A DNA stretch of 64,000 nucleotides. Source: Patescibacteria group bacterium (GTDB lineage: Bacteria > Patescibacteriota > Microgenomatia > Levybacterales > UBA12049). The translations under genes and the position numbers were made by a program. Each line of letters starts with the position of its first letter. Within the stretch, counting starts at the first letter, position 1. Where the stretch lies: the NCBI GenBank assembly GCA_026004395.1, contig BPJB01000001.1, positions 777,226-841,225 on the forward strand, in the 5' to 3' direction. A model generated the notes under the pieces. The model was not told the origin of the DNA, did no database searches, and was given only the letters and a program-made list of their open reading frames with translations. Shown here in pieces: positions 20,575 to 45,191 of this stretch.

Positions 20575-21522
20575 TTATTTTGAATTTTTACTGGTTTTTT
20601 CGACCTTTGAATTTTTAGATGTGCTTTTTCCTTTTGAGTTTGGACTTTTAATTTTTTCATTCTCTTTTTTCTCTATCTCTTTTTCCACTGCTTTCTTATC
20701 TTTTGCTATTGCCTTATCTGTCGCTTTTGATGATTCTTGGGCTTTTTTCTTTTCTTTGGATGAAGAATCTGTCTCTTTCCCAGATTCTGGCTTTGATGCT
20801 GTTTTCTTCACAGCCTCAGTTCCCACTTTCCCCTCAATCCAGGCATCAACAATATGATCCACAATAAGTTTTATAGATCCTACAGCATCATCATTAGCAG
20901 GAATTGGATAATCAATTATCGTTGGATCTGCATTAGTATCTGTAATACCAACTGTTGTGACACCCATTGCACGTGCTTCCTTAACTGCTAATTGTTCCAA
21001 ATGAGTATCGATAATAAAGACTGCATCAGGGATTTTGTTCATCTCCTGTACTCCCCAATAGAAACTTTCCAGTTTTGCTCTTTCTTTTTCCAAAAGAGAT
21101 AGTTCTTTTTTTGTAAATCGAGCTTTTTCGGAAGGATTATGCAAAATCTCAGTAAGCTCTTTAAGTCGTTTGAAGTTTTTGGAGACTTCTTGAAAATTGG
21201 TCAGAAGTCCTCCCACCCATCTATTAGTGACAAAATAGAGACCATTAGCGCCAGCATCCTTTACCCTCTGTGCGTTTTCGCGTACCACTGATTCTGCCTG
21301 ACGTTTTGTACCCAGGATGATCATTGTACCACCCTTTTTTGCAAGGTTGAATACATAAGAGGCTGCCTCATCGAGTCCTTCTTTTGTCTTTGCCAAGTCA
21401 ATAATATGGATATTATCGCGAGCTTCAAAGATGTATTCACGAGCTTTGGGGTTCTGGCGTGTGACTTGATGTCCAAAATGACATCCTGCCTCTAATAATT
21501 CTTCAAGAGTAATATTTTTCAT
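20575..21522 (-). CDS. rpsB: 30S ribosomal protein S2 with lysine-rich C-terminal extension
   Basis: 315 aa. LLEAGCHFGHQVTRQNPKAREYIF N-terminus typical of uS2, plus ~80-aa K/S/E-rich tail. Confidence 0.9.
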   Translation of the reverse strand: MKNITLEELLEAGCHFGHQVTRQNPKAREYIFEARDNIHIIDLAKTKEGLDEAASYVFNLAKKGGTMIILGTKRQAESVVRENAQRVKDAGANGLYFVTNRWVGGLLTNFQEVSKNFKRLKELTEILHNPSEKARFTKKELSLLEKERAKLESFYWGVQEMNKIPDAVFIIDTHLEQLAVKEARAMGVTTVGITDTNADPTIIDYPIPANDDAVGSIKLIVDHIVDAWIEGKVGTEAVKKTASKPESGKETDSSSKEKKKAQESSKATDKAIAKDKKAVEKEIEKKENEKIKSPNSKGKSTSKNSKVEKTSKNSK

Positions 21523-21609
21523 ATATGTCCTTTATTCCTCCATCTAGCTTAAGGTACAGCAAGGACATCTGCTAGATGTGCGTAATGAATATCATTATAC
21601 ACAAAAAAT

Positions 21610-22050
21610 ATGTATAATACAAGAAGACGTATGATGAAACATCTACCGCTTCTAATTATCTTCAGCTTTATACTTTTAGGATCTCTAAGTTTTTGGGTAT
21701 TTATTTTTACACATTCTCAACAAACAAAGAATATGCAAAAAGTAGAAACCAAATCGTATTCCTGTTCAAAAATTGTGGAGGAAAAATCAATAATTATCAC
21801 AAATATGCAATTCTCACCGTCCTTATTGAAAATACCGCGATGTTCAAAAGTAACATTTATCAATCAGGATAAAACTGATCATTGGCCTGCATCAGATATC
21901 CATCCAACACATGGAATTTATCCTGAGTTTGATCCTAAAAGATCTCTCAAACCAAATGAAAAATGGTCATTTGTCTTTGAGAAAAAGGGTAAGTGGAGTT
22001 TTCACGATCATCTCCATCCAACAACCTATGGTACGATAGAAGTACTATGA
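21610..22050 (+). CDS. Membrane-anchored cupredoxin-fold-like protein
   Basis: 146 aa. N-terminal TM helix, then beta-rich domain with F.P..L.IP....V.F.N.D...H and C-terminal H..HP..YG..I.V, resembling cupredoxin-like domains. Assignment tentative. Confidence 0.35.
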   Translation: MYNTRRRMMKHLPLLIIFSFILLGSLSFWVFIFTHSQQTKNMQKVETKSYSCSKIVEEKSIIITNMQFSPSLLKIPRCSKVTFINQDKTDHWPASDIHPTHGIYPEFDPKRSLKPNEKWSFVFEKKGKWSFHDHLHPTTYGTIEVL

Positions 22051-22589
22051 AATTGGCAATAAAAAAATCAGTCGCTATAGTTTTTTTTCTTGGCATTATT
22101 GCACTTAATTTGACTCTTTTTGTGATATATCGGATATTTAGCGACTTCTCTTCTCCAGAGAATAGCATTGATCAAAATAATCAAAACCAAAAAACAAGTG
22201 AACAAAAAGCAAATGGACAAGCCATAGAAGTTGGCCCAGCTGCACCAAAGATAGAGCTTCTGCGTGTCCTACCCCCTGATATACCTGAAAGTGAACGTAA
22301 AAAACATGAAGATTTTCTCAGAAAAAATGCAAGAGAGACTGCAATTGTTTTTATCAATAGAGACTGTGATTCTTCCCCTACTGTTGCCAAAATAGTTGGT
22401 GTGGCAACAATGAAATTTATAAATGAAGATAAAGTTGAACACACAGTGACCATTGCCGGCAAATCAACATTTACTGTTAAACCAGGAATACCTTATCTGA
22501 TCAAAGTCAATACATTAGAAAAAAATAAATTAATTGCTTATACTTGCGACAAAAAAGATAATTTATCAGGGTATATTTACATCCCCTGA
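22047..22589 (+). CDS. Membrane-anchored cupredoxin-fold-like protein (paralog)
   Basis: ORF track starts at 21993, but the likely start is MKLAIKK at 22047, overlapping the upstream stop (ATGA coupling). TM helix, then AIVFINRD....VEHTVTIAGKSTFTVKPG..Y.IKV beta-rich domain. Confidence 0.3.
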   Translation: MKLAIKKSVAIVFFLGIIALNLTLFVIYRIFSDFSSPENSIDQNNQNQKTSEQKANGQAIEVGPAAPKIELLRVLPPDIPESERKKHEDFLRKNARETAIVFINRDCDSSPTVAKIVGVATMKFINEDKVEHTVTIAGKSTFTVKPGIPYLIKVNTLEKNKLIAYTCDKKDNLSGYIYIP

Positions 22590-22674
22590 TATTTTTAGTC
22601 TTTAACTCTAATAATAAAGTTTTATTAACTTAAACTTTTAAGTAAAATCAGAATGGTTTCCTCTCCATTGGGAA

Positions 22675-23697
22675 CTAAAACAAAGATCTCGTCAGATATG
22701 TAGAAATAAAACTTACACATTCATCATATTGTTTATCGTCTTTCAATACATCACAAAGATCCTCTCTCTTGTTACCTCGACTAACTGAAAGAAATGTTGA
22801 GAATGCAGCTGCCTCAAAAAAACAGCGCTTCTTATCAAAAGCTGTTGGAGCGCGCTCACAAAGGGAGAAAAGAAGCACTTTATCCCCTTCATAAACTGAA
22901 GCGTACAAATCAGCAAGCGTTACATAACAGGCTGATGCTATCTTTCCTTGATATGTTCTACAATAAGTCTCTCGTTCTGCAATAAAATTTTTGTCCCATT
23001 TTTTTCTTTCTGCAATACCATGCTCTACAAGATTTTCCCTGTTGCTATCCTCCATGAATACCCCCTCTGCACATCCGTATTGATTGAGATCGTCTAAGGA
23101 GGAACAAATATTGATTGCCTCAGGAATATTGCCTTTTGTTTGTACTAAAAGAAGATGACCTGTGGCATGAGCACAACTCGTATCATAAGCTAAGTTTGCT
23201 TTAGAATCTCCTTGAACAATTCCACATATTTTTTTAATCGTCTGAGCATTAAGCCTAAAATTAGGATTTGATCCGATGTGTGCCTCAATAACTCCATGGA
23301 AAAAACCGCGAGTGCACGCAAAAGGATCAATATTCTCCAGTACTGAAAGCCATTTATCTGGATCTTTTCTTACTTCCTCTTGTGCAATTTTATGCGCATA
23401 GGGATGACAATATTTTACACTTGGATCCAGTTTTGCCAATCTCTGAAGCAAAATCAATGCCTCCTGAAGAGAATGCTGACTAGTAAATGTTGCAAAAAGA
23501 TCCTGATAACACGCTGTTTTATTTGCATGCGCAGCACAAGTGTCAAAAAATTCACGACTTTTATTTTCAATAGTGGTTTTTCTTTTTTCAACAAAACTGA
23601 AGTTTTTTTTAAAGTAAAGAGAAAAGAAAATAGCAATATCTGCTACAATAATTGCACATAAAACACTACAGATAAAAATAAAGCTTTTTCTCTTCAT
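22675..23697 (-). CDS. Membrane-anchored Cys/His-repeat protein (paralog A)
   Basis: 340 aa. N-terminal TM. Internal repeats of C-x-x-G-(F/I)-x-H-G type (CTRGFFHGVIEAHIG, CAHATGHLLLVQT, CAEGVFMED...VEHGIAE, CFFEAAAFS). Clear paralog of the adjacent gene. Confidence 0.4.
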   Translation of the reverse strand: MKRKSFIFICSVLCAIIVADIAIFFSLYFKKNFSFVEKRKTTIENKSREFFDTCAAHANKTACYQDLFATFTSQHSLQEALILLQRLAKLDPSVKYCHPYAHKIAQEEVRKDPDKWLSVLENIDPFACTRGFFHGVIEAHIGSNPNFRLNAQTIKKICGIVQGDSKANLAYDTSCAHATGHLLLVQTKGNIPEAINICSSLDDLNQYGCAEGVFMEDSNRENLVEHGIAERKKWDKNFIAERETYCRTYQGKIASACYVTLADLYASVYEGDKVLLFSLCERAPTAFDKKRCFFEAAAFSTFLSVSRGNKREDLCDVLKDDKQYDECVSFISTYLTRSLF

Positions 23698-24935
23698 CGA
23701 GGTCTTTTATCTCCTAAGCAATAGGGACGATAATTCTTAGGAACATGCGAACAATAACTCTGTATTTCTCTTTGTTTAAGTTTCATTGAAAGAAAATCAT
23801 TGATCATTACGAAACATTCATTATTTCTTTTCTTTTGCGCAAGACAAAAAGAAATTGCTGCCTTACGGGGTTCAAGCGTAGAGTTGAGTAAACTCTTTAC
23901 AGCAATTGACATACACTGTTCAACAAAGCTGTTATCAGAAAAAGCTGTACAAACAGCTGCAAAATATTCATTATCTGCTTTAGGATTTTGAATAAAGGTT
24001 GCTACTCCGTGCAGAAAACATGCTTTCTGCAGAGTCTCGGAAGGAGCGTTCTTACAGTCTCGCAAAACTAGATACGGAGTAAGACGTGCACGATGATTAT
24101 ATAGATGAGAAATTTCTTGCCAACACCCATAGGCTATATTGCCATCATATTGTCTGCAGATTTTTTCTATTTCTGTAATTGTCCTATCATCCCAAGGGAC
24201 AAACTCCGCAATCCCATGAGCAACAAGATTTTCTCTAGTAAAGTTCTCCATAAATATTCCGCTAGCACATTCCTTTTGCAGATAAACTGGTATTGATCGA
24301 CAGATCTTGACTGCATCAGCAATATTTGCATGTGTCTGTACTAGAAGAACATGACCAATAATATGTGCACATGTTTGATCAACACCACGTGAACCTTTTT
24401 CATTTAACATTGCTTCACAAAAACTGGGAATAGTTTTAGAATTCAAGGTAAATGTAGGATCAACACGTATCTTTCCTTCAATAATTCCATGAATAAATCC
24501 ATAGTTACAGATATTCGGATCAACTATTTTTAAAAGCTGTTGCCATCTATCAGGATGCTTCGCTACCTCCTCACTCATTATCTTATGAGCAATAACATGA
24601 CAATCTGATAGACGTTGGTCTTTCTTATTAATTGCTTCAAGGAGTTTGAGCGTAAAAGCAAGATCATACTCTTTTGCCAGTTTGGCAAACATGTCAGAAT
24701 AACAACCATTCCAGAGATCAGTTGCTGAACATTGAGTAAGCAGAGATTGAGATTCTTTCTCAACTGCTTGTTTTTCTACCTGATCTCTCTCCATTTGATG
24801 TTTTTGAGAGATTGCAAAAAGAGCAATGATATCTGCAACAATAATTAGTACCAAAAAATACGCTATGATTGCTAACAATGATGGATGTTTTAAAAGAGGA
24901 AATTTTCTTAAAAATGATATATTTTTTGCCGACAT
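23694..24935 (-). CDS. Membrane-anchored Cys/His-repeat protein (paralog B)
   Basis: 413 aa. N-terminal TM. Colinear motifs with paralog A (CHVIAHKI, CNYGFIHGIIEGKIR, CAHIIGHVLLVQT, CASGIFMEN...VAHGIAE, CFLHGVATF). 4-nt overlap with the downstream gene. Confidence 0.4.
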   Translation of the reverse strand: MSAKNISFLRKFPLLKHPSLLAIIAYFLVLIIVADIIALFAISQKHQMERDQVEKQAVEKESQSLLTQCSATDLWNGCYSDMFAKLAKEYDLAFTLKLLEAINKKDQRLSDCHVIAHKIMSEEVAKHPDRWQQLLKIVDPNICNYGFIHGIIEGKIRVDPTFTLNSKTIPSFCEAMLNEKGSRGVDQTCAHIIGHVLLVQTHANIADAVKICRSIPVYLQKECASGIFMENFTRENLVAHGIAEFVPWDDRTITEIEKICRQYDGNIAYGCWQEISHLYNHRARLTPYLVLRDCKNAPSETLQKACFLHGVATFIQNPKADNEYFAAVCTAFSDNSFVEQCMSIAVKSLLNSTLEPRKAAISFCLAQKKRNNECFVMINDFLSMKLKQREIQSYCSHVPKNYRPYCLGDKRPR

Positions 24936-25078
24936 TACGTTTATAGTACACAGCTTGGGAGAAAAAATTCAAGCATGCCCAAAGAATTATTGCTCAACTT
25001 CTTGCAAGAAATATTTTATGTAATCAAAATTGATTAGAGTTAATTCTGGATAAATTCTCAACGAGAGAAAAATTAATT

Positions 25079-26050
25079 TTACTCTGTGGTATGTTTTTTG
25101 GAGTCGGCAAGATATTCTTCAGCAACTTGAGGAAGAGAAGATAGCACCTGAAAAGTAGGCTTCATTGAGAGATGACTATAGGGACGAGGAAATTTGGTGG
25201 TCATGTACTCTTCCTCAAGCATAGCATCGCTTAAAACTTCATATGGCATTCTACCGTAATATGTTATCCCGCGAACAAATGCATCGAACAGAGATGGATT
25301 ATCCTGCCAAAATGTCTGTATAAATTCCCATTCTTTTATCTCTTGCTCAGCTTGGGGAAGTCTAGCAAGAAATGTATAATATTCATCAAGATTTCCTTCT
25401 TTAATTAATTCCGTCAGATAGTAACTTCGTGCCATATCCTGAATCTGAAATAAAGCTGCTGGAAGAGCTATACGTATCTTATCCATAGCCATTGCAAAAA
25501 GTGCGTTGGTTGAGGCAAGCTGCGCGATCGCTTCCACATAATCGCTTTGTTCACAACTTAACTCATTGGCATGAGAATCTTCATGTGCAATAGTAGAGAC
25601 TAAAAGAGGTTTCTTTTGAGGTGAACCTAAGTAACTATTTTCTTCAAAAAAACCACTGTTTAGTCTTATAATTGCAGGCTGCGAGTACACAGCACCAATT
25701 TGTCTACACTGAGTTCTTCCAAAAGAAAAATATTGTCTCAAGAGATCAGTTGGTCCTCCAAAATCTTCGATGACGATCTCAGGATAAATTAGAGTATTTT
25801 CATTTTTGTAGCCTGCTTTGGCAAGATAAGGAACAAACTCGTTTTGAAAAGCAATTGCTTCATCTAAACTACTAATAACTGGTGCCTCGGGTCTTATTTT
25901 CTCAAGTATTTCTGCGACATCAATAGCAAGATTAGCTGCATTTTCTTTGTTTGGTGGAGGTAAAAGATATGACTCAAGTTTTAAAGAAGGCTGCACTATC
26001 TCCTCCTTTGATAATCTTTGAGAAAAAAAAGAAGCAGCAGCAACCCCCAT
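25079..26050 (-). CDS. Hypothetical protein
   Basis: 323 aa ORF with no recognisable motif (contains AHEDSHANELSCEQ). Confidence 0.3.
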   Translation of the reverse strand: MGVAAASFFSQRLSKEEIVQPSLKLESYLLPPPNKENAANLAIDVAEILEKIRPEAPVISSLDEAIAFQNEFVPYLAKAGYKNENTLIYPEIVIEDFGGPTDLLRQYFSFGRTQCRQIGAVYSQPAIIRLNSGFFEENSYLGSPQKKPLLVSTIAHEDSHANELSCEQSDYVEAIAQLASTNALFAMAMDKIRIALPAALFQIQDMARSYYLTELIKEGNLDEYYTFLARLPQAEQEIKEWEFIQTFWQDNPSLFDAFVRGITYYGRMPYEVLSDAMLEEEYMTTKFPRPYSHLSMKPTFQVLSSLPQVAEEYLADSKKHTTE

Positions 26051-26335
26051 AAATCTTTATAGCATCTCTCTTCTAGACATAGAAAAACTATCTCTCTGAG
26101 GCAAAGAAGATGTTGACTCAGAAGAAGAGTTATTATCTGCCACTATCTTCGCTTTGTGAAGCAGCTCTGAGTGTTCTGTTGACATAAGTTAAGTATAAAA
26201 AGATTAATCAGTGATGTCAACAACTATAAGATGAGTCTTTACTGCTTATAGTTTGATAATTAAAGATTTTTTCACTCATCTGCTTGCTTTATTTGCACTT
26301 AAGTACTATGCTTTCATAGTAAATACTATTTAACT

Positions 26336-27790
26336 ATGAGATCTATCTCAGAAAATCTTAAAGAATCATCTACCAATAAGCATTGGACGATTAACCGTCG
26401 CAAACTGTTGGGTGCAGCTCTTGGCGCTACAGCAGTAACCATCTTTGGAACTGAAACAATAAAAAAAATAGCCTCTGACTCTTCTTCTCCCAAACTAACA
26501 CAACCTTCTTTAGAAGAATTACCTACTGAGCAAACTCCTTCACCACAAATTGAATCTCAAGATATATCTGAACTTTCAATTATTAGTAAAAATGGATCAA
26601 TCGAATTTTCTGAAGCAGCTCTTTTAAATGGTATCGCTGAGATGCGAGATTGGAATATCTTTGTAGATATAGGTCAAATTAATAGAGTAATCTATAGTGG
26701 CGAGGATATTACATTGCAAATTTCTGTAAATAATATAGAGGGGACAGTCGATCCTTTTCTTAAGATTACATCTTGGAGCCTGGATATGACCCCAAAAAAT
26801 ACTAATGATGATTTTATAACTAAAGGTGTAGATTACATTACACCACTAGATAACCTAGATAATCCGAAACGAAAATACAAATACAATATGAAACTCTTCC
26901 CTGCCGGATCAGAAGGTAGCATACTAACTATATCAGTAAATGGGAAGGAGTATTCAAGAAGACTTTTACCTCCTCAATATATCTACCCTTCAACTGACAA
27001 CGAGATAATTTTGGTTTCAGATACAGAATTAGGTCCAGAGAAAGAATCGCTTAAGAATTTATTAAGTAGCGCCAAAACATTTATTACTGATAAGCAACTC
27101 CTTACATTTCTACGCCGTCCACTTTCAGATTACGGAATAGATGTCATTGAAGATCAGGAAAACACAAGATGTACGCCAATTGTCCTTACATCACAGGAAT
27201 TTGCTGATCAAGTAAGTAGCATAGCACGATCAGTCTCAGAAAATATAGGCAATCTACCAAAAGCATTAAGAGCATGGGAAGCTCTTGAAAATCGCTTTGA
27301 AGTAGTAAAGTCACGTCTTCTTGAAAAAGGTATTCAGTTAATAAATCCCTCCTCTAATACACTTGAAGATCCAAAACCCATTTCTCTTGCTGAGTTTATG
27401 TTCTCAAAACCTGGAAAACCAGAAGAAAAATCAAATAAAAATAATCAGTTTGATGTCAAATTAATAACACAACGATTTATAGAAAATATTCTTTTAGATC
27501 CCCAAGGATGGGAAGAAAAGTTTAGACAATTAAACTACACTGATCCAAACACTGCAAGTCGATCTGATAAAGTTATAGTAAGTTATACAGCATCAGCAAT
27601 TTATAATGTCTTTTTAGCTGTTGATCCTGAAAAAACAAGAAAATTTCTACCTGCTCTTCAACCATGGAGCGATAAACCAGATGAGACTTGGATCAAGCTG
27701 GGACAGACTCATGTATTTGACACTGACGCTACTACAGAATTTTTACTAAGAGAAATACCAACTGCTGTTCCTCGACCATCCGCACCTTAA
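26336..27790 (+). CDS. Hypothetical exported/membrane protein with Tat-like signal
   Basis: 484 aa. NRRKLLGAALGATAVTIFG twin-arginine-like motif plus hydrophobic helix ~30 aa from the N-terminus. Confidence 0.35.
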   Translation: MRSISENLKESSTNKHWTINRRKLLGAALGATAVTIFGTETIKKIASDSSSPKLTQPSLEELPTEQTPSPQIESQDISELSIISKNGSIEFSEAALLNGIAEMRDWNIFVDIGQINRVIYSGEDITLQISVNNIEGTVDPFLKITSWSLDMTPKNTNDDFITKGVDYITPLDNLDNPKRKYKYNMKLFPAGSEGSILTISVNGKEYSRRLLPPQYIYPSTDNEIILVSDTELGPEKESLKNLLSSAKTFITDKQLLTFLRRPLSDYGIDVIEDQENTRCTPIVLTSQEFADQVSSIARSVSENIGNLPKALRAWEALENRFEVVKSRLLEKGIQLINPSSNTLEDPKPISLAEFMFSKPGKPEEKSNKNNQFDVKLITQRFIENILLDPQGWEEKFRQLNYTDPNTASRSDKVIVSYTASAIYNVFLAVDPEKTRKFLPALQPWSDKPDETWIKLGQTHVFDTDATTEFLLREIPTAVPRPSAP

Positions 27791-28298: not shown

Positions 28299-29687
28299 AT
28301 GAGCGTTTTTAATAAAGAATATATACATACCAATAGAATTTCATCCGTTCGTAAGGAACTTCAAGATTTATTAAGAGAATCTCCAACAGCATCAGAAGTT
28401 GATGATAAATTACTGATTGCTGATCTTGAAGAAAGTCTTAAAGAGACAAAAAGAAAGTTAAGCAGAAGGACGTTTATTGCGGGTGCAGCTGGAATTGCTG
28501 GTGGTACTATTGCTAGTTTTTTGGTTAAAAAATATGATTTAGACAAATCAAGCAATTCAAATTCTACAAAGATCGAACATAAATCTTTTGCAAATACTCT
28601 TAATCCAGACTCTCAACTTGGTGAGAATCCTGCTAACGCAGTTGATTATAAATGGAGAATAGCGATTCCATATGAGATCGCTCAAAATACGATAGATGTA
28701 ACTGTCAGAAGTAATGGTCTAAATATTTCTGAGAAATTAAAACTAAAAGCAGGAGAAAAGCCTGATGTAAATATTCCAATGTTTGTAGGTCCTGATAACA
28801 AATTATATTGTTATCTATATGGAATACCAACAAGTGATAGTGGCATAGTAGAGGTAAATATAGGTGACAATAATTATAATATTTTTCTTAAGAGTATAGT
28901 TCCACAAGTGGGTGATAGAACAGGATTGTTTTTACTTGAAGAAGAAATTTCAGATTTAAAAGATAGTGTTCTTTTTAATAATATTGTTGAAATTTTGGAG
29001 AATGCAGAAATATTTCTTCCTACTGAAGACAAATTTACAGTATGGATACCACAATTAGCTTTTCCAGGGAGAACTGTTATAAGTGAAGATCGGATTGGTA
29101 TTGTTGTGTCACAAGAACAAATTCAGCAATCAAATTTTTTAACATCGGAGTTGCCTTATATTTTGGGTAAAAGTATACTACCAATTTATTTTTCGCCTGA
29201 TAAGCAGAATCTTATAAAACCGGGTATATTGAAACAAATAGGAGATTTTATTGAAACATATCAATCACAAACAACAGTAGGACAACTTAAAGCCAATGGT
29301 GCTAAATTTAATGACGAAGGCCAAATTATTACCTATCCTTCTTATCTTCAAGCTTTACAGGTTGTTTCTTATGATTCAAATTTTACCAAAGCAGGTAATA
29401 TTACTTTAAATTCCAACATTGAAGATTTCAATGATTTATTCGCGCAAATATATACAATTACCGCTAATACAGAATATCTTCAAAAGTTTTCAGACTGGTT
29501 TGATAATACTAATTCCATTCAACGTGCATTTACAGTCCCATTACTTCAAAAATATACAACTTTGTTAGAGATAATGCATAAGGGTGATAGGAGAAATACT
29601 GCCTATAAAAACATAAAAGAATTTTTATCAAAAAGACGAATTGATAGTAGCAATTCTAAATCAAATCAAAGATCAATAACCCCATAA
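28299..29687 (+). CDS. Hypothetical exported/membrane protein with Tat-like signal
   Basis: 462 aa. LSRRTFIAGAAGIAGGTIASFLV (RRxF + hydrophobic) ~55 aa from the N-terminus. Same architecture as the upstream gene. AT-rich. Confidence 0.35.
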   Translation: MSVFNKEYIHTNRISSVRKELQDLLRESPTASEVDDKLLIADLEESLKETKRKLSRRTFIAGAAGIAGGTIASFLVKKYDLDKSSNSNSTKIEHKSFANTLNPDSQLGENPANAVDYKWRIAIPYEIAQNTIDVTVRSNGLNISEKLKLKAGEKPDVNIPMFVGPDNKLYCYLYGIPTSDSGIVEVNIGDNNYNIFLKSIVPQVGDRTGLFLLEEEISDLKDSVLFNNIVEILENAEIFLPTEDKFTVWIPQLAFPGRTVISEDRIGIVVSQEQIQQSNFLTSELPYILGKSILPIYFSPDKQNLIKPGILKQIGDFIETYQSQTTVGQLKANGAKFNDEGQIITYPSYLQALQVVSYDSNFTKAGNITLNSNIEDFNDLFAQIYTITANTEYLQKFSDWFDNTNSIQRAFTVPLLQKYTTLLEIMHKGDRRNTAYKNIKEFLSKRRIDSSNSKSNQRSITP

Positions 29688-29820: not shown

Positions 29821-30312
29821 ATGAGCCTCACTAAAGCAATAATTTTTGTTTTATTAATAATGTCATTTATTATTGGTAGTATTTTTCTTGCAACTTTTCC
29901 TTTTTCATTTCTACACAGAGAATTAAGTATTCAAAATAACTCTAAAAAAATTAACTTTTATTGGAATTATAATAATAACAAAAAACTAATATCTTGTTTA
30001 AAAGAAATTAGCACACAAAAACAGCAGCATTTAAATAAAATAATGTTAATAATAGAAGATTCAAATTTGCAAACGCCATTATCTAAACCAATATATGAAG
30101 AAAAGAAACAACTTCTTAAAGTTTTTTTGTATCTTCCAAGCTCTCCTATGATTAAAAATAATAATCTTGCTTATACTAGAGTTGTCTATACAAATCTTAT
30201 TTTTTCTTTAATGGAATATTATAAAATGCAAGATCAACAGAATTGTTTATACGAAGAATATTTGGAAACAAGAGACAATAAAATACGATATTTTAATATC
30301 TCTTTAAAATGA
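29821..30312 (+). CDS. Hypothetical small membrane protein (very AT-rich)
   Basis: 163 aa ORF with N-terminal TM helix, Asn/Lys/Ile-rich. Overlaps the start of the large downstream gene by 4 nt. Confidence 0.25.
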   Translation: MSLTKAIIFVLLIMSFIIGSIFLATFPFSFLHRELSIQNNSKKINFYWNYNNNKKLISCLKEISTQKQQHLNKIMLIIEDSNLQTPLSKPIYEEKKQLLKVFLYLPSSPMIKNNNLAYTRVVYTNLIFSLMEYYKMQDQQNCLYEEYLETRDNKIRYFNISLK

Positions 30313-33161
30313 AAAATTTTCTTGATAGAAAAGAAACTTATTTAATAGTTATACTCAGCTTTATTTTACTTTTTCTTGTTTTAGTTAATAAAAATACTTT
30401 TGCTCAAGTTTGTTCTACATACTGTAATGAACAATATGGTATTCCTACAAATCATGTTTGTGCGTATGTAATTGATTGTAATGGTTATGAAATCTGTAGA
30501 GCTGCTCCTCGAAACTGTATGGGTTATGAATGTATTTATTGTCCGCCCCCACCATCTTCTGATGGTGGTTATGGGGATGGTTCGTATGATGCACCATATA
30601 ATAGTCCATATTATGCAGATTTTCGTGTTACAGGGGTTGGTGTGAGGAATAGGAATGGTAATACTCAGTCGTATTATGTAGCAGATTCACCTGGGTATAA
30701 TATCGATGGAGATCCGATATATGTTTCTGTGAGTATATTGAATGATGGTAATGGTTATCCTGATACTTCTTCAAGGCATGCTGTGTATAAGGATGTTGAT
30801 GCATATAATAGTGGTTCAGCCTCCATGTATATAGACTCATCTGATAACTGGCCTCCAGGCACTACAGCTACTTATCAGTCATGGTCTGGAGGTGTAGGCA
30901 GTGGTCAGTTTACGAGTCCATATTTTATGCAGCGTAATGCAGGTAGGTATAGGGTTTATGTTAAAGCCAACTATAATAATGCGGTGACGGAGTGGAATTA
31001 TTCAAATAATACGGGGTCTAGCGCTATTTATGAGGTCAGATCATCAATTTTTGGTTGGGTGTGTTGGAGTTTGGATGAGGATGCCCAGTGTGATGATGCT
31101 AGTGGGAGTACACCAGCTGATCCTTTGGTGAGTAATATACGGATTAGTTTGTATAGGGATGATAATAATAATTATGGTACTTTTTTGGGTACAGATACTA
31201 CGGTGCAAACGAGTAATTGGAACAGAAGTTATGCTTTTGATAATCTGAGTGCTGGAGATTATAAAGTGAGTTGGGATGATCCTGATTGGCTGCCTATTTC
31301 CTCACAGGAGAGGACAGCAAGTCTTGGTCCGCATACGAGGATCAGGTTTGCGGTGAAGCCAGCGTATAGGCTTTGGGGTTATGTGTTTGTGGATGAGGAT
31401 CGGGATGGTGTTCGGGATAGTAATGAGACTGTGGGATATTCTGGGGTGAGAGTTAGTTTGAGTGGTGAGGAGAGTAGGACGACGACGACAGATGCTAATG
31501 GGATGTATGAGTTTACTTCTCTTCCACGTGGTACGTATACGATCACGATTACAGAGCCTAATGGGTATAAGGCTTATCCTTCAGTGAGTAAGCAGCAGGT
31601 AATAGATCGTAATGAGACTCAGAGGAACTGGAGGAATGATTTTGGTATCAATCGGGTGTATAGTATAACAGGTAGGGTGTATGCTGATGCCAATCGGGAT
31701 GGGAGTTATTCAGCAGCTGATGTTGCGATAGCTAATCAGAGTGTTAGTTTGACAGGGAGTAGTTCAGCGAGTGTTGTTACTGACTCCAATGGGGTGTATA
31801 GTTTTGATAGACTTGAGCCTGGTGAGTATTTGGTGACTACTACACCACCTGCTGATTATACGGTGTTGACCTCACTTCCTTTGCGGGTGGTAATCACCTC
31901 TTCTAATGTAGCTAATCAAGATATACGTTTTTATGGTAAGTATACGATCTCAGGTGTGGTGTTTGTTGATGAGGATGATAGTAAGACGAAGAATAATCAG
32001 GAGCAGAATTATCCAGCTAATCCGCAGATAGCAGTTACCTCATCTCCAACTGGAGCTCCTCTTCCTCAGGTGGTGAATAATGCTGATGGTTCGTATCAGG
32101 TAACAGGACTTATCTCAGGGGAGTATACAGTGGCGTATAGTGCGCTGCCTCTTGGGTATTATGTGTTTCATCCCCGACCAGCGTTCTATGCTCCAAGAGT
32201 TGGTGTTGGCTGTAGTCCTGCGCCCCAGTCACCAGGAGGAAGCTGTGATGGAAATAACAATATAGTTGATCTGAACTTTGCGATCAAAGCTGGTGAGCCG
32301 TGGATGCAGATCTATGGTGCGGATGTGAGGTTTGATGAGGGGTTGAATGACCCTGTGCCTCCAACACCTAATGCTGCCTGTGGTGGTGCTTATGTGATCC
32401 TGCCGGGTAGTGGTGGTACTCCTGGTGTTGGATTTAGTGGAGATCTGCCACCTAAGCTTAATCTGGGTAGTATCTCCTCTTTGGGTTGGCTGGTGGGTGG
32501 TGTGCAGTATCCCTCGTTGTTTAAGCCGGTGAGAGCTAAGGTGATCAGAACAGCTTATGGTTATCTGATGTTTGCTGTTGGTCGGGGTAATGTGCGTACT
32601 GTTAATCTCTCCTCTGTATGTGATCCTGCCAACTGTACTCTGCCTGCTTCTTTGGCATCAGGTATCTATACTGCAACAGGAAATGTTAATCTTAATGCTT
32701 TTACCTTTCCTGCTAATCGGGACTATATCTTCCTCATAGATGGTACTCTGCGTATTAAAGGACAGATCCGAGTTCCCACTACCTCAACAGCTACATTCTC
32801 TGTCTCTGAGGATATCCTCATTGATGGCAGTGTGGGTAGTCCTCCTTCCTGTCCTCCACCAGCTGTTGGAGCTGCTGATCTGGAGGGTTTTTACAGTGCT
32901 GATCGCAACTTTATCGTTGAGAGTTCTCCTCAGACTGACTGTTCAGCAGGTATCATCGATAAACAGCTTAATGTCCAAGGAGCAATTGTTGTGGATGCTG
33001 GACAGAGAACACCAGGTGGAAGATTTACCAACAACAGAACCTTCTGCACCCAAAATATTGACTACCCCTCCTTCACCCTCAAAGCTAGACCTGATTTCAT
33101 CCTTAATGCCCCTGAGTTCATCAAACGCGAAAACTTCATCTGGCAAGAAGTAGCACCATAA
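30309..33161 (+). CDS. Large secreted/surface protein with Cys-rich N-terminus and tandem Cna-B/SdrD-B-like (prealbumin-fold) repeats
   Basis: 950 aa. Signal/TM at N-terminus, Cys-rich segment (CSTYCNEQYG...CAYVIDCNGYEICRAAPRNCMGYECIYC). At least four repeats of the G.V..D.N.DG..D..E.....V.V.L......TTTD.NG.Y.F..L..G.Y type (e.g. GYVFVDEDRDGVRDSNETVGYSGVRVSL...TDANGMYEFTSLPRGTYTIT). Confidence 0.55.
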   Translation: MKNFLDRKETYLIVILSFILLFLVLVNKNTFAQVCSTYCNEQYGIPTNHVCAYVIDCNGYEICRAAPRNCMGYECIYCPPPPSSDGGYGDGSYDAPYNSPYYADFRVTGVGVRNRNGNTQSYYVADSPGYNIDGDPIYVSVSILNDGNGYPDTSSRHAVYKDVDAYNSGSASMYIDSSDNWPPGTTATYQSWSGGVGSGQFTSPYFMQRNAGRYRVYVKANYNNAVTEWNYSNNTGSSAIYEVRSSIFGWVCWSLDEDAQCDDASGSTPADPLVSNIRISLYRDDNNNYGTFLGTDTTVQTSNWNRSYAFDNLSAGDYKVSWDDPDWLPISSQERTASLGPHTRIRFAVKPAYRLWGYVFVDEDRDGVRDSNETVGYSGVRVSLSGEESRTTTTDANGMYEFTSLPRGTYTITITEPNGYKAYPSVSKQQVIDRNETQRNWRNDFGINRVYSITGRVYADANRDGSYSAADVAIANQSVSLTGSSSASVVTDSNGVYSFDRLEPGEYLVTTTPPADYTVLTSLPLRVVITSSNVANQDIRFYGKYTISGVVFVDEDDSKTKNNQEQNYPANPQIAVTSSPTGAPLPQVVNNADGSYQVTGLISGEYTVAYSALPLGYYVFHPRPAFYAPRVGVGCSPAPQSPGGSCDGNNNIVDLNFAIKAGEPWMQIYGADVRFDEGLNDPVPPTPNAACGGAYVILPGSGGTPGVGFSGDLPPKLNLGSISSLGWLVGGVQYPSLFKPVRAKVIRTAYGYLMFAVGRGNVRTVNLSSVCDPANCTLPASLASGIYTATGNVNLNAFTFPANRDYIFLIDGTLRIKGQIRVPTTSTATFSVSEDILIDGSVGSPPSCPPPAVGAADLEGFYSADRNFIVESSPQTDCSAGIIDKQLNVQGAIVVDAGQRTPGGRFTNNRTFCTQNIDYPSFTLKARPDFILNAPEFIKRENFIWQEVAP

Positions 33162-41065: not shown

Positions 41066-43042
41066 ATGTGGCAAAAAATTTTCTCTGACAAAAGATCTCA
41101 GTTCTTCAGCCTTATCATCCTAATTCTCATCGGAACAGCGATACCTCTAACTATTCTTCTAAGTCAACAGGAACAAGATATCCGCCAACAAGCAGCCGAG
41201 ACATCACAAGTATGCTCAACAGATCAAGCAACAGACACAATGCTTATCATTGATCGCTCAGGTAGCATGGGACGAGCAACATCTACTACAGATCCCACTC
41301 CGCGCATTGATAGTGCCAAAACTGCTGCCAATGCATTTCTGGACATCCTAGCACAGCGAACTGCAGAACCAAAACATGCAGTAAGTCTAACGACTATCTC
41401 ATCTGAATCTATGGTAAAACTCGATCCATCCCTAACACAAGATTTGCAGAGAGTGAAAGCTGTAATTAATAGTCTTACTCCGGGAGGAGGAACCTGTATT
41501 GAATGTGCTATCAAAACTGCCGCTGATGATTTTGCCAATAAGGAAAGAAGTGGTATCAAAAATATTGCTGTTATGCTTACGGACGGAGGAGCAACACAGT
41601 ATATAGGAGGACCAGCTGATACTTCACCAACAAATCGAGCTGAAGCTGAAAAACGCGCATTTGAAAGAGCGATGCAAGTACATAAACAATACAATGTAAC
41701 ATTCTATACAATTGGCTTTGGTGATGTAGTTAAAGATGAGCTTCTTCTTAAGATAGCCACTTCCTCTGGTGGTGAGTATGTTTTTGCACCCAGTAAAGAA
41801 AAACTGAAACAAATTTATGAAAATCTGGCTAAGATTATTGGGAAAGGATCAGTTACAGGCAATGTCTTCAACGATCTCAACGGCAATGGAATTAAAGAAA
41901 CAAATGAACCATTCCTTCCAGGATGGAAAGTTGATCTTCTAGCAGGAAATACTGTTGTTGGAAATTCTACTACATCTGATGAAGGATATTTCTCTATCAC
42001 AGGTATCTGTGATGGTACATACCAACTCAAACTCAATCTCCAGCCAGGATGGAGACAAACAACACCTATCAACAATGGAGTACATCCCATTACAATATCC
42101 AAAGGAAGTACTATAACAGACAAACTTTTTGGTGTACAACTTATGCCAAAAGCGACTACACTCGCATGCTTACCTTCTGATCTTACCCTTTCAGAGACTC
42201 CCGGAACAATAACTGCAACACTTCGAGATAGTGATGGTAATCCAATTCCAGGACAAACACTTACATGGTCATCCCCCAATCCCTCTCTTATTATCTCACC
42301 TACTTCTCAAACAACTGGAGCAAATGGCACTATCACTGCACAAGTCTCTGTTGGCAATCCTGAAGATAAAAGTGAAGAATTTACTTCACAACTCACGGTA
42401 ACGAGTGCTGGATCTTCACAATATAATCAAGCAAGCTGTATTGTGAATGTCTCTTTCAAACCCAACGTTACTACCCTTTCGTTTAATATCTTCCTCCATG
42501 GAATTGGCAAAAGCGGAGACAATGCCAATCCTAATAGATTTGATCTAAGTAATGCTAATCCTCTCAATCCTGAGCGACCTTTCCTCATTGAGGTATATAG
42601 TATTGAGGGTGAAAATCCACTTATTGCAAGAGTTCAAGGAACATTAGTATATGATTCTAAAGACGGCATATTCAGAGGAACAATACAACTTCCCAATACT
42701 GTTCAATCTGGGAAATACAATATCTTCGTTAAATCACCTCAATATATCTTCAGACGTGTACCTCAGACATTAACAATAGTCAAAGGACAACAGTATATAG
42801 TGCCCACTATTACACTCGTATCTGGAGATGTTGATGACAATGATGAACTTGATATTCTTGACTACAATATACTTGCTGGATGCTACTCAGATTTTGCACC
42901 AGCACCCTCCTGTACGGAAGAATTGAAACAAAAAGCAGATCTTAGAGATGATGGACAAGTTAATCAAGAAGATGTTAATCTATTCTTAAGAGAGCTCTCC
43001 GTTCAACGTGGAGATCAAAGACCAAACCAACAATACCGATAA
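41066..43042 (+). CDS. Membrane-anchored vWA-domain protein with SdrD-B-like and Ig-like domains and C-terminal dockerin module
   Basis: 658 aa. N-terminal TM, vWA MIDAS DTMLIIDRSGSMG, Cna-B-like segment (GNVFNDLNGNGIKETNEP..GWKVDLL...TTSDEGYFSITGICDGTYQL). C-terminal dockerin-type duplicated Ca-binding repeats (GDVDDNDELDILDYNIL ... DLRDDGQVNQEDVNLFL). Confidence 0.6.
   Translation: MWQKIFSDKRSQFFSLIILILIGTAIPLTILLSQQEQDIRQQAAETSQVCSTDQATDTMLIIDRSGSMGRATSTTDPTPRIDSAKTAANAFLDILAQRTAEPKHAVSLTTISSESMVKLDPSLTQDLQRVKAVINSLTPGGGTCIECAIKTAADDFANKERSGIKNIAVMLTDGGATQYIGGPADTSPTNRAEAEKRAFERAMQVHKQYNVTFYTIGFGDVVKDELLLKIATSSGGEYVFAPSKEKLKQIYENLAKIIGKGSVTGNVFNDLNGNGIKETNEPFLPGWKVDLLAGNTVVGNSTTSDEGYFSITGICDGTYQLKLNLQPGWRQTTPINNGVHPITISKGSTITDKLFGVQLMPKATTLACLPSDLTLSETPGTITATLRDSDGNPIPGQTLTWSSPNPSLIISPTSQTTGANGTITAQVSVGNPEDKSEEFTSQLTVTSAGSSQYNQASCIVNVSFKPNVTTLSFNIFLHGIGKSGDNANPNRFDLSNANPLNPERPFLIEVYSIEGENPLIARVQGTLVYDSKDGIFRGTIQLPNTVQSGKYNIFVKSPQYIFRRVPQTLTIVKGQQYIVPTITLVSGDVDDNDELDILDYNILAGCYSDFAPAPSCTEELKQKADLRDDGQVNQEDVNLFLRELSVQRGDQRPNQQYR
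42846..42900 (+). repeat. 55-nt exact direct repeat (copy 1) inside dockerin-coding region
   Basis: aacttgatattcttgactacaatatacttgctggatgctactcagattttgcacc is identical to 44983-45037. Confidence 0.8.
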
Positions 43043-43043
43043 T

Positions 43044-45191
43044 ATGTTACATTCATTGTCATCAAATAAGAAAATTCTTTTTCTTGTCCTGATAGGAATT
43101 TTACTCATCAGCCTACCTCTAACCATCTATCTCTTACAAAAGCAACAAGAAACACGAAGTAAAGCAGAATTAGCAACAACTCTCTTCTTTGAACCCCAGT
43201 CAACGAGTGCATCTCCTATTCAAAAAAATGTAAACGATATTTTTTCAGTGAATATGATGGTCAATCCTGGACAGAACCAGATTTCACTGGTTAAATTTGA
43301 AATTACCTACGATGCAACCAAAATTACGGCTCTAGGAACAAAAGGTTTTACCACTAATACAAATGCATTTCCAGTAACCGTAGAAGGTCCATTTATAACT
43401 GAAGTAAACAACGTGGGTAAGATACAGGGCACTGTTTCAATTGGTTCAGATTATAACAAGGCAATTACCTCCCAAACCATAGTCGGATCTATAGAGTTTA
43501 AAGCAAAAGCCAGCACATCCACCCAAACTACACAAATTAATTTCAGTAGTACCAATACTCAAGTGCTTTCTCTTGGTACAGGTGATCAAGCCAGTGAAAA
43601 TGTACTTTCATCCACATCACCAGCATATATTACTATCTTACCTGCAATAACTTCTTGTTCGTTTAATCCTTCTACTGCGGATATTATGATGATTGTGGAT
43701 GTTTCAGGAAGTACTCTTGATAACCGCACTTCACAAAAAACAGCCATGAAGAATTTTGTGGATAGTGTAATCGCAAATAACAGTGTCAGTGGTCAGTACC
43801 GTATTGGTCTTATCTCCTACGCATCAACCGCTCGCCTCAATTTCTCTTTGCAAAATGGAACAGACTACAATGGACTAAAAAATGCGATTGACAACATGCC
43901 ATTTATTGATAATGCATCAGCAGGAGAAGCAGAAGCAGTTAGACTTTCAACAGACGAATTTACCAAATACGGAAGAAGCGGAGTAAGAAAAGCAGTAATT
44001 TTGCTTACAGATACAATTGATTCTTATACCAACAATGCAGCTAATGATGCATACAATATTCACAAGACCGCATTTTATGTTTTGGCTTATGATATTACTA
44101 ATAGCACCATCCGCCGCATGCTACAGGATCTAGCAGGTAGAACCGGTGGGACATATCATGAATACACTGGTACATCAGGACCATCTGAAAATCAACTTCT
44201 TCAAGATCTTGCATCAGATGTCACGTGTCCCACAGTTACTCCAACTACCCCTTCACCAACACCTACTCCAACACCTGCCTCTCCAACTCTCACATTTACA
44301 GCAGCTCAGACATCTCTCAGTTATAACGGCTCAACCACTCTGAGTTGGAACTCTACAAATGCATCCTCATGTACCGCCTCCGGAGGGTGGAGCGGCACAA
44401 AACCACTCAGCGGAACTGAAAGCACTGGTCCTCTCACATCATCCAAAATCTACGTACTAACCTGTACTGGTCCGGGAGGAAGCGTAACAAAATCTGTTAC
44501 TGTAACTGTTGCACTGCCTACACCTACTCGAACACCGACTCCAACACCAACACCCATACCTACAAATACTCCAGTACCAACGAATACACCTATTCCGCAG
44601 GCAACCAAATTTAAATTTATCGTTTACCTCCATGGTCTGGGAAATAGTGGAGACAATCGCAACCCCACAGCTCATTCACTCAGCAATAAAAATCCTATTA
44701 GACAACAGAGATCACTGGATATTGAAGTCCTCACTACCGGAGCAACACGTCAGATTGTTCTTAAAAAAAGCTTCACAACGGGTCTGACATATAACGCAGC
44801 GCAAGGGTATTTTGAGGGTCTTGTAGATATGGGAACAACACTCCAATCAGGAATCTATAATATCAATATCCATACCTATCAATATCTTTGGAATTCTTTT
44901 GCAGGTGTTCAGATTACCGCAGGACAGACAAATACATTCCCATCAATTTCTTTAGTTACGGGTGATATCAATAATGATGACCAACTTGATATTCTTGACT
45001 ACAATATACTTGCTGGATGCTACTCAGATTTTGCACCTGCTGTGTCCTGCCCTGCTACAGTTGTCCCATCAACACCTTTCCTCCTCAAAGATATGGCTGA
45101 TCTCACTGACGATGGCAAGGTAAACCAGTTTGATTACAATCTTTTCCTTCGTGAATACTCAGTACAAAACAGCAACCGTATTACACAATAA
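43044..45191 (+). CDS. Membrane-anchored cohesin-like + vWA-domain protein with PT-linkers and C-terminal dockerin module
   Basis: ORF track starts at 43008, but the likely start is MLHSLSS at 43044, just after the upstream stop. TM helix, cohesin-like N-terminal domain (FSVNMMVNPGQNQISLVKFEITYDATKITALG...GSIEFKAK), vWA MIDAS DIMMIVDVSGST. Pro/Thr linkers (TPTTPSPTPTPTPASPT), Ig-like domain. C-terminal ~190 aa colinear with the upstream protein tail, including dockerin repeats (GDINNDDQLDILDYNIL ... DLTDDGKVNQFDYNLFL). Confidence 0.55.
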   Translation: MLHSLSSNKKILFLVLIGILLISLPLTIYLLQKQQETRSKAELATTLFFEPQSTSASPIQKNVNDIFSVNMMVNPGQNQISLVKFEITYDATKITALGTKGFTTNTNAFPVTVEGPFITEVNNVGKIQGTVSIGSDYNKAITSQTIVGSIEFKAKASTSTQTTQINFSSTNTQVLSLGTGDQASENVLSSTSPAYITILPAITSCSFNPSTADIMMIVDVSGSTLDNRTSQKTAMKNFVDSVIANNSVSGQYRIGLISYASTARLNFSLQNGTDYNGLKNAIDNMPFIDNASAGEAEAVRLSTDEFTKYGRSGVRKAVILLTDTIDSYTNNAANDAYNIHKTAFYVLAYDITNSTIRRMLQDLAGRTGGTYHEYTGTSGPSENQLLQDLASDVTCPTVTPTTPSPTPTPTPASPTLTFTAAQTSLSYNGSTTLSWNSTNASSCTASGGWSGTKPLSGTESTGPLTSSKIYVLTCTGPGGSVTKSVTVTVALPTPTRTPTPTPTPIPTNTPVPTNTPIPQATKFKFIVYLHGLGNSGDNRNPTAHSLSNKNPIRQQRSLDIEVLTTGATRQIVLKKSFTTGLTYNAAQGYFEGLVDMGTTLQSGIYNINIHTYQYLWNSFAGVQITAGQTNTFPSISLVTGDINNDDQLDILDYNILAGCYSDFAPAVSCPATVVPSTPFLLKDMADLTDDGKVNQFDYNLFLREYSVQNSNRITQ
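44983..45037 (+). repeat. 55-nt exact direct repeat (copy 2) inside dockerin-coding region
   Basis: Identical to 42846-42900. Encodes LDILDYNILAGCYSDFAP in both proteins. Confidence 0.8.

Follow-up and report, generated by a model that had tools for sequence, protein, structure and literature searches.

On the minus strand of a 64,000-nt stretch of DNA from a Patescibacteria group bacterium (contig BPJB01000001.1; hereafter the window), two adjacent genes, designated A and B, encode paralogous, cysteine- and histidine-rich proteins with a predicted membrane anchor. As judged from the family libraries and the structure database searched, they belong to a large family that is undescribed. The proteins are predicted to fold as alpha-solenoids made of about nine divergent helix-hairpin repeats of ~35 residues, and they conserve a cluster of His, Met and Glu residues. 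We propose, with slightly less than even confidence, that they are extracytoplasmic metal-binding solenoids, the metal probably being copper, and that they work with a cupredoxin-fold partner devoid of conserved cysteine.

Two tandem genes of a large solenoid family

The open reading frames (ORFs) of genes A and B (413 and 340 codons; coordinates in Table 1) overlap by 4 bases in an ATGA stop/start arrangement. They probably constitute one operon, with translation coupled through the overlap. Their products share 36% identity over 341 residues (BLASTP, E=1e-72), and each contains a single strongly hydrophobic segment, located at the N-terminus: residues 20-38 in the gene A product (Kyte-Doolittle mean, 2.94) and residues 6-24 in the gene B product (mean, 2.83). 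All of this agrees with a previous sequence-only reading of the window, which had described two overlapping minus-strand ORFs, called their products clear paralogs and assigned a transmembrane (TM) helix to the N-terminus of each. Since Lys or Arg residues precede the hydrophobic segment in both proteins, the arrangement fits an anchor of N-in/C-out topology that would leave most of the chain outside the cytoplasm.

A word-indexed search returned 28 close cluster representatives; two of them bear a name, in each case 'hypothetical protein', and one of the two is from a 'Candidatus Levybacteria' metagenome-assembled genome (MAG). An exhaustive profile search of representative clusters (50% identity) gave 5,284 clusters at E<=1e-3, 2,707 at 1e-10 and 463 at 1e-30. 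Placeholder titles aside, every relative whose source is named comes from Patescibacteria, also known as the candidate phyla radiation (CPR); the named locus records are Patescibacteria, Levyibacteriota or Saccharimonadales, save for placeholder titles reading 'uncultured Gammaproteobacteria'. The best matches of gene A are the first genes of the pairs found in loci L022, L023 and L003 (81, 66 and 54% identity, respectively), and those of gene B are the second genes of the same pairs (72, 52 and 42%). Because each copy has its own orthologs, the duplication is older than these three lineages, and both copies have been maintained. Together with the 28 close representatives and the 5,284 clusters, these separately conserved orthologs show that A and B are real genes rather than chance ORFs; spurious ORFs, which the sequence-only reading had allowed for, are not borne out in view of the thousands of conserved homologs.

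Relatives also occur in larger tandem arrays. Five copies each are present in L001 (8001-14519) and L005 (83-10291), and ten or eleven are packed into 21 kb of L020 (JGI 3300072685, 1-21350), two of them fused to a cupredoxin domain. Often a PMT_2-like GT-C gene adjoins the large arrays, as does the rplK-rplA-nusG or rplJ region. In a separate observation, giant predicted proteins (P0033, 3580 aa; P0109, 2143 aa; P0145, 1727 aa) contain 4-7 family units in tandem. P0033 carries a Glyco_hydro_3 domain, and the giant proteins are otherwise without informative extra domains. They may be genuine polyproteins, or may result from gene calls that read through tandem arrays, for example in lineages using an alternative code.

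Neither the A nor the B protein matches a Pfam or NCBIfam model at E<=1, or a PADLOC or PHROGs profile at E<=0.1. Among 70 diverse members, no Pfam model matches the helical domain, a marginal TPR_27 match (E=0.0086) in one of the 70 apart, and cupredoxin-type matches are confined to fused members. Searching the PDB by sequence (phmmer and two profile searches, E<=10) yielded chance matches only (DUF262, DEPDC5, YisP and a thioesterase). No description of the family was found in the literature on CPR cupredoxins, on cysteine-rich or copper proteins of Patescibacteria, or on cupredoxins combined with helical repeats. An AlphaFold2 model of the gene A product, built from a 27-sequence alignment, is confident (predicted local distance difference test, pLDDT, 90.8; predicted template modelling score, pTM, 0.81) and consists of 22 helices and no strands. 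When compared to the PDB with Foldseek, it recovers designed repeat proteins, VPS35, importins and TPR/HAT proteins, with a best E of 8e-3 and a template modelling (TM) score of ~0.2. The failure of the sequence-only reading to place the proteins in any family is thus upheld, structure comparison adding only generic alpha-solenoids. Membership in the HEAT, ARM or TPR families was rejected, there being no corresponding Pfam match for the window proteins and only a generic likeness of fold. LanC-like cyclases are alpha/alpha-toroids with the zinc motifs GxxHG, WCxG and CHG. Their fold, named in the sequence-only reading as an outcome that would overturn it, did not materialize: there is no LANC_like Pfam match and no LanC among the best 50 Foldseek matches, and what the model resembles is open solenoids, not toroids.

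At sixteen positions, Cys is retained in over 95% of 212 family sequences. Most of these residues form pairs that span helix-helix turns, 9-16 residues apart: 69/78, 173/189, 212/223, 260/271, 294/306, 329/341 and 364/374, plus 393/403 in gene A. C112 and C143 sit at the starts of two neighbouring helices and are replaced jointly in P0193 and P0194. When profiles of the ~35-residue segments are compared with one another, they match in the same register, their first Cys residues coinciding, with probabilities of up to 86%. The Cys pattern, the joint loss of C112 and C143 and the in-register segment profiles suggest that the protein is built of stapled hairpins, in which a disulfide probably links a Cys at the end of the first helix to a Cys one turn into the second, locking each hairpin. 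With four to five repeats, the sequence-only reading counted too few; about nine hairpin units are indicated by the structural model and by the arrangement of Cys residues, and it is the His-containing motifs that are confined to repeats 2-5.

Invariant residues and cupredoxin-like partners

Invariance was judged over alignments of 27, 70, 163 and 212 sequences, whose members are 20-35% identical in pairwise comparison. Four motifs are invariant or nearly so: C112-H113-x3-H117, C143-x2-G146-x2-H149-G150-x2-E153, C189-x-H191-x2-G194-H195 and C223-x2-G226-x-F228-M229-E230. H113, H117, E153, H191, H195, M229 and E230 are each at least 96% conserved, and H240 is kept in 190 of the 212 sequences. 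In the second helices, conserved residues recur with a spacing of i, i+3/4, i+7, which places them on one face of the helix. Three consecutive repeats display a pair at i/i+4 (H113/H117, H149/E153 and H191/H195, that is, H/H, H/E and H/H), followed by the Met-Glu dipeptide. All residues of the cluster are present in gene B (H98, H102, H134, E138, H177, H181, M215, E216 and H226), and residue mapping shows that this copy has diverged at the equivalents of the less conserved W272, E274, H277 and H309. Of the motifs listed in the sequence-only reading, CxxGFxHGxIE (C143-E153), CAHxxGHxLLVQT (C189-T201) and CAxGxFME...HGIAE (C223-E230, H240-E244) are found in both proteins; for CFxxG only the C-F is common to the two, the Gly being absent from the 340-aa copy.

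Position 149 is His in 192 of the 212 sequences and Met in 15, Met having arisen in at least three sequence groups, and residues other than these two occur only in truncated or highly divergent paralogs. Where a residue is otherwise invariant, exchange between His and Met is typical of copper sites, and the pattern favours copper as the metal.

Convergent to genes A and B lie two plus-strand genes for predicted membrane-anchored proteins, partners 1 and 2, which overlap each other by ATGA. Partner 1 passes the Pfam Cupredoxin_1 threshold (29.3 bits against a cut-off of 27, E=8.8e-7), and its profile matches amicyanin at E=2.9e-5. It is thus like the type-1 blue copper proteins amicyanin and plastocyanin in having the cupredoxin fold, but was rejected as a member of that class because the His-Cys-His-Met ligand set is missing: an invariant Asp (D133) stands where the blue-copper Cys would be, and further downstream neither the His nor the Met position is conserved. 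Over 22 partner 1 domains the motifs WPASDxHPxHGxYPEFD and HDH are invariant, the invariant set comprising D96, H98, H101, E106, D108, H132 and H134, and no Cys is conserved. A protein encoded by a Patescibacteria MAG (KatS3mg089) has the same sequence as partner 1 (100% identity). Among the 120 matches listed, proteins are unnamed or called 'hypothetical', 'plastocyanin' or 'cupredoxin domain-containing', and the named organisms belong to the CPR. Partner 2 resembles cupredoxins weakly (PDB profile E=0.0097 to 4hcf, 'Cupredoxin 1'; 24% hhalign probability against partner 1) and is possibly a degenerate cupredoxin-like beta-sandwich. Hence, of the two cupredoxin-like genes reported in the sequence-only reading, both exist, the first passing the family cut-off and the second being only marginally cupredoxin-like.

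The association is a recurrent one. Genome and metagenome scans supplied 29 further loci; neighbourhoods were compared in 35 loci. A partner 1 homolog is encoded no more than 6 kb from the solenoid genes in 19 of the 35 and a partner 2 homolog in 11, with one or the other nearby in 23 loci, and in 15 of 23 when loci of at least 6 kb are considered. Five loci encode fusion proteins in which a cupredoxin domain precedes the solenoid. Searching with one such fusion protein retrieved ~17 full-length clusters of 487-569 aa, at identities down to 32%, and the cupredoxin domain of a fused homolog superimposes on cupredoxins with Foldseek TM scores of 0.7-0.77. The link to cupredoxins, tentative when made from the window sequence alone, is thereby substantiated by conserved neighbourhood and recurrent domain fusion. 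Linkage and fusion are real; partner 1, with Asp in place of Cys, is not a blue-copper protein.

A putative metal centre at the cell surface

We infer metal binding, the identity of the metal and the interaction with the partner along the following lines. The solenoid would be a type-II membrane-anchored, extracytoplasmic protein tethered at the cell surface. On the second helices of repeats 2-5, the three i/i+4 pairs and M229/E230, with H240 nearby, would together form one or two metal sites, copper being the most likely metal. Partner 1, membrane-anchored, rich in His and Asp and lacking conserved Cys, would act with the solenoid, and the pair could bind a metal, hand over metal ions or electrons, or redox-cycle the metal at the surface. 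The sequence-only reading had envisaged disulfide-stabilised or metal-binding modules outside the membrane; the anchor topology, the 16 paired Cys residues and the His/Met/Glu invariants are consistent with such modules, disulfides and metal alike being predictions.

A more ambitious version of the proposal, which we consider unlikely, holds that the cluster is an undescribed extracytoplasmic metal centre, perhaps binuclear and containing copper, and that it forms with the Cys-less cupredoxins a CPR-specific surface system for redox chemistry or metal scavenging. If so, the system could take copper or iron from a host or the environment, or handle oxygen species, in organisms thought to lack such chemistry. 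A sizeable part of bacterial diversity is patescibacterial, and for the majority of surface proteins in this group no function has been assigned. The present family is among the more tractable parts of this "dark matter", with more than 5,000 clusters, a confident fold model, a sharp invariant site of ~8 residues, a soluble ectodomain and a fused or adjacent partner. Should it bind copper or another redox metal, it would represent a new metalloprotein scaffold, and minimal, supposedly fermentative epibionts would be running dedicated metal or redox chemistry at their surface. Should it bind no metal, it would still merit a database entry as a new family of disulfide-stapled solenoids.

The closest parallel in kind is EfeO, which combines a Cupredoxin_1 domain with a helical imelysin (M75) domain bearing a GxHxxE metal motif and which has an M75-only split form, EfeM (PMC9174327, PMC3143127). 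Foldseek ranks E. coli EfeO first for a model of the fusion protein (7wgu_B, E=2e-4, 414 columns), ahead of plastocyanins and amicyanins, which match the beta domain. Like EfeO and EfeM, the proteins described here are predicted to be extracytoplasmic and associate a Cupredoxin_1-type domain, devoid of a classical blue-copper site, with an all-helical domain in which conserved Gly, His and Glu residues make up a presumed metal-binding motif. Fused and split forms exist in both cases, the window having separate genes and relatives elsewhere having fusions; in the fused relatives an N-terminal Cupredoxin_1 domain is joined to a putative metal-binding helical domain, as in EfeO. The differences are equally clear. 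An apparently disulfide-stapled solenoid takes the place of two four-helix bundles, GxxHGxxE (H-x3-E) and HxxxH pairs that of GxHxxE, and the solenoids appear membrane-anchored whereas EfeO is soluble or a lipoprotein. Homology of the helical domain to Peptidase_M75/EfeO was rejected, given an hhalign probability of 0.1% against E. coli EfeO and the lack of a Peptidase_M75 Pfam match. With the fusion alignment as query, the sole hhalign alignment to EfeO (3.8%) lies at the N-terminus, covering the signal peptide and the start of the cupredoxin, and none extends over the helical domain. Neither an EfeU/FTR1 permease nor an EfeB/DyP peroxidase is encoded in the seven loci for which neighbour gene calls were available (L001-L005, L019 and L020) or among 25 window proteins scanned with Pfam.

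A precedent for a metal site carried by a helical-repeat scaffold is provided by deoxyhypusine hydroxylase (DOHH), whose HEAT repeats supply His and Glu from successive hairpins to a dimetal site (PMC9117371). DOHH differs in being cytosolic and eukaryotic or archaeal, in having four His-Glu dipeptide motifs, and in lacking Cys pairs, sequence similarity and a cupredoxin partner.

The predicted stapling of hairpins also has a counterpart. In Sel1-like repeats (SLRs) the spacing between cysteines is short. HcpB and HcpC of Helicobacter and human COA7 are disulfide-bridged Sel1-like alpha/alpha-repeat proteins (PMC8892353), and the present family resembles them in its alpha/alpha-repeat solenoid, its oxidising compartment, its single Cys pair per hairpin (the disulfides being predicted here) and its expansion into paralogs. 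It departs from them in its Cys spacing (9-16 residues) and in the invariant His/Met/Glu cluster, which has no counterpart in Hcp or COA7. Membership in the Sel1/Hcp/COA7 group was rejected in the absence of a Sel1 Pfam match and of any Hcp or COA7 chain in the phmmer and profile searches of the PDB at E<=10; neither protein is among the top Foldseek matches of the gene A model. Overall, the system resembles cupredoxin-plus-helical metal proteins and stapled solenoids in kind and, by the sequence comparisons made, is homologous to none of them.

The likeness to COA7 raises the question of whether the paired cysteines are themselves functional, as Cu(I)-storing thiolates in the manner of Csp1/Csp3 or as a COA7-like thiol-disulfide relay or reductase that matures partner proteins. 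Between 16 and 18 conserved Cys residues would be at hand, partner 2 has two invariant ones, and COA7, itself disulfide-bridged, has disulfide-reductase activity (PMC8892353) and a role in assembly of the copper sites of complex IV. Nevertheless, we regard a functional role as very improbable. The pairs lie at hairpin ends instead of forming CxxxC rows along the core of a bundle, C112 and C143 disappear jointly, and a location outside the cytoplasm makes oxidised pairs more likely; in partner 1 there is no conserved Cys that could be reduced, and sequence similarity to Csp, COA7 or Hcp is lacking. The Csp copper-storage family was likewise rejected as a home for the solenoids, which have no Csp match in the PDB sequence searches and whose Cys residues do not line the core of a four-helix bundle.

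Several observations weigh against a metal-handling role. About one third of the loci show no cupredoxin-like partner nearby. The model of the fusion protein (pTM 0.68) has a low-confidence 20-residue linker between its domains, and hence no fixed domain interface is predicted; moreover, the likeness to EfeO is geometrically weak, with Foldseek TM scores of 0.15-0.21. No CopA, CopZ, FTR1, DyP or other metal transporter, chaperone or regulator was detected among the neighbours in the loci with gene calls. Neighbours are rather of surface or envelope type, namely giant SdrD_B proteins (11 of 35 loci), PMT_2-like GT-C proteins, Wzy_C and an M23 peptidase. Lastly, the presence of up to 10-11 paralogs per locus is unusual for a metal-handling protein.

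Such neighbours could be taken to mean that the solenoids are non-catalytic surface scaffolds or adhesins binding proteins or glycans, for instance those of an epibiont's host cell, in which case the invariant His, Glu, Met and Gly residues would be structural, held in buried networks of hydrogen bonds and packing contacts that join the helices, and the cupredoxin-like proteins would be plain beta-sandwich modules. Alpha-solenoids of the SLR, TPR and ARM types usually mediate binding (PMC8892353) and are the only matches of the gene A model in Foldseek. The large paralog arrays, the adjoining adhesin-like SdrD_B and VWA proteins and glycosylation genes point in the same direction, and Gly residues conserved beside His (G146, G150, G194, G226) fit tight helix packing. 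Yet invariance of five His, one Met and two Glu residues at 20-35% identity is unusual for a purely structural role, H149 tolerates only Met in full-length members, and partner 1 conserves a His/Asp cluster at the positions of the classical cupredoxin metal loops. On balance we find a pure scaffold rather improbable.

Alternatively, the solenoids could be enzymes that work outside the cytoplasm and have polymers of the envelope (peptidoglycan, glycans or lipids) as substrates, with the His and Glu residues forming a hydrolase, lyase or metallo-hydrolase site, the paralogs differing in substrate and the cupredoxin-like domain serving as an accessory module. Expansion into paralogs recalls carbohydrate-active enzyme families, invariant His, Glu and Asn residues could be catalytic, and Peptidase_M23, transglycosylase with PG_binding_1, Wzy_C and PMT_2-like genes adjoin the family in some loci. 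These envelope neighbours are, however, restricted to a minority of loci (PMT_2-like genes in 4 of 35; M23 and transglycosylase in one), and there is no sequence or fold match to alpha/alpha-toroid or other helical enzymes (LanC, lyases, glycoside hydrolase (GH) families or M75). An enzymatic role seems to us distinctly improbable, and a metal-binding solenoid acting with partner 1 remains the interpretation that we put forward.

Recurrent neighbours and other genes of the window

Table 1. Positions of the solenoid genes, their partners and their main features in the window.
Feature	Position	Strand	Description	Basis
Partner 1 (146 aa)	21610..22050	+	Predicted membrane-anchored cupredoxin-fold protein without the blue-copper ligand set	Pfam Cupredoxin_1
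Partner 2 (180 aa)	22047..22589	+	Predicted membrane-anchored; invariant C107, N126, C167, G175	Sequence, alignment
Gene B (340 aa)	22675..23697	-	Shorter paralog with complete core cluster, without the last two repeats	
Gene B core, residues 97-226	23020..23409	-	C97-H98, H102, C128, H134, E138, C175, H177, H181, C209, M215, E216, H226	Alignment mapping
Gene B N-terminal TM anchor, residues ~6-28	23614..23682	-		Hydropathy
Overlap of genes A and B	23694..23697	-	ATGA stop/start	Sequence
Gene A (413 aa)	23694..24935	-	Predicted membrane-anchored Cys/His alpha-solenoid, long copy; ~9 hairpin repeats, 18 Cys	
Gene A core, residues 112-240	24216..24602	-	Repeats 2-5, putative metal ligands	Family alignments
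Gene A N-terminal TM anchor, residues ~20-43	24807..24878	-		Hydropathy and continuous helix 20-69 in the AlphaFold2 model

Among the neighbours of the family, a second recurrent protein type is exemplified in the window by a 950-aa surface protein (30309-33161, plus strand) with SdrD_B, CarboxypepD_reg and SpaA-like repeats. Its residues 545-950 have no Pfam match, are 37% identical to L001:520-2745 and have homologs at most 6 kb away from solenoid genes in 11 of the 35 loci; by sequence, these C-terminal ~400 residues appear to constitute an undescribed conserved domain. In L007 (7363-9790, minus strand), a cupredoxin partner, a PMT_2-like glycosyltransferase with 12 TM segments and partner 2 form one tight operon, an organization which suggests that surface proteins of the module may be glycosylated. 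In L019 (5377-11163), a cupredoxin-solenoid fusion gene lies directly downstream of genes for two peptidoglycan hydrolases, one a Peptidase_M23 protein and the other a transglycosylase/PG_binding_1 protein.

In the window (G+C content, ~35%), the A-B pair is surrounded by housekeeping genes, including rpsB, tsf, frr and genes for an RseP-like protease, serine hydroxymethyltransferase, glucose-6-phosphate dehydrogenase, a tRNA synthetase and a Mur ligase. Together with the identity of partner 1 to the MAG protein, which is encoded on a 1.08-Mb contig, this context marks the window as part of the chromosome of a CPR bacterium. An Rfam scan of positions 21300-26500 gave nothing above noise in the way of a metal riboswitch or leader, and promoter and terminator signals were no higher than expected from shuffled sequence.

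Upstream of gene A and separated from it by 143 bp lies a 323-aa ORF (25079-26050, likewise on the minus strand) that contains an HEDSH motif of the HExxH type. It has no Pfam or NCBIfam match and, among the fetched loci, is present only in the close relative L022. Two plus-strand ORFs, 26336-27790 and 28299-29687, encode orphan proteins of 484 and 462 aa with twin-arginine-like N-termini (RRKLLGAALGATA and SRRTFIAGAAG, respectively); the two are mutually unrelated and lack Pfam matches. Both lie in or beside a stretch of low G+C content (0.283 between 28001 and 30000). None of these three ORFs is a conserved neighbour of the solenoid family. Farther along (41066-45191, plus strand), two adjoining genes for large proteins with VWA domains, one of which also has SdrD_B and Big_1 domains, make up a further surface-protein cluster in the window.

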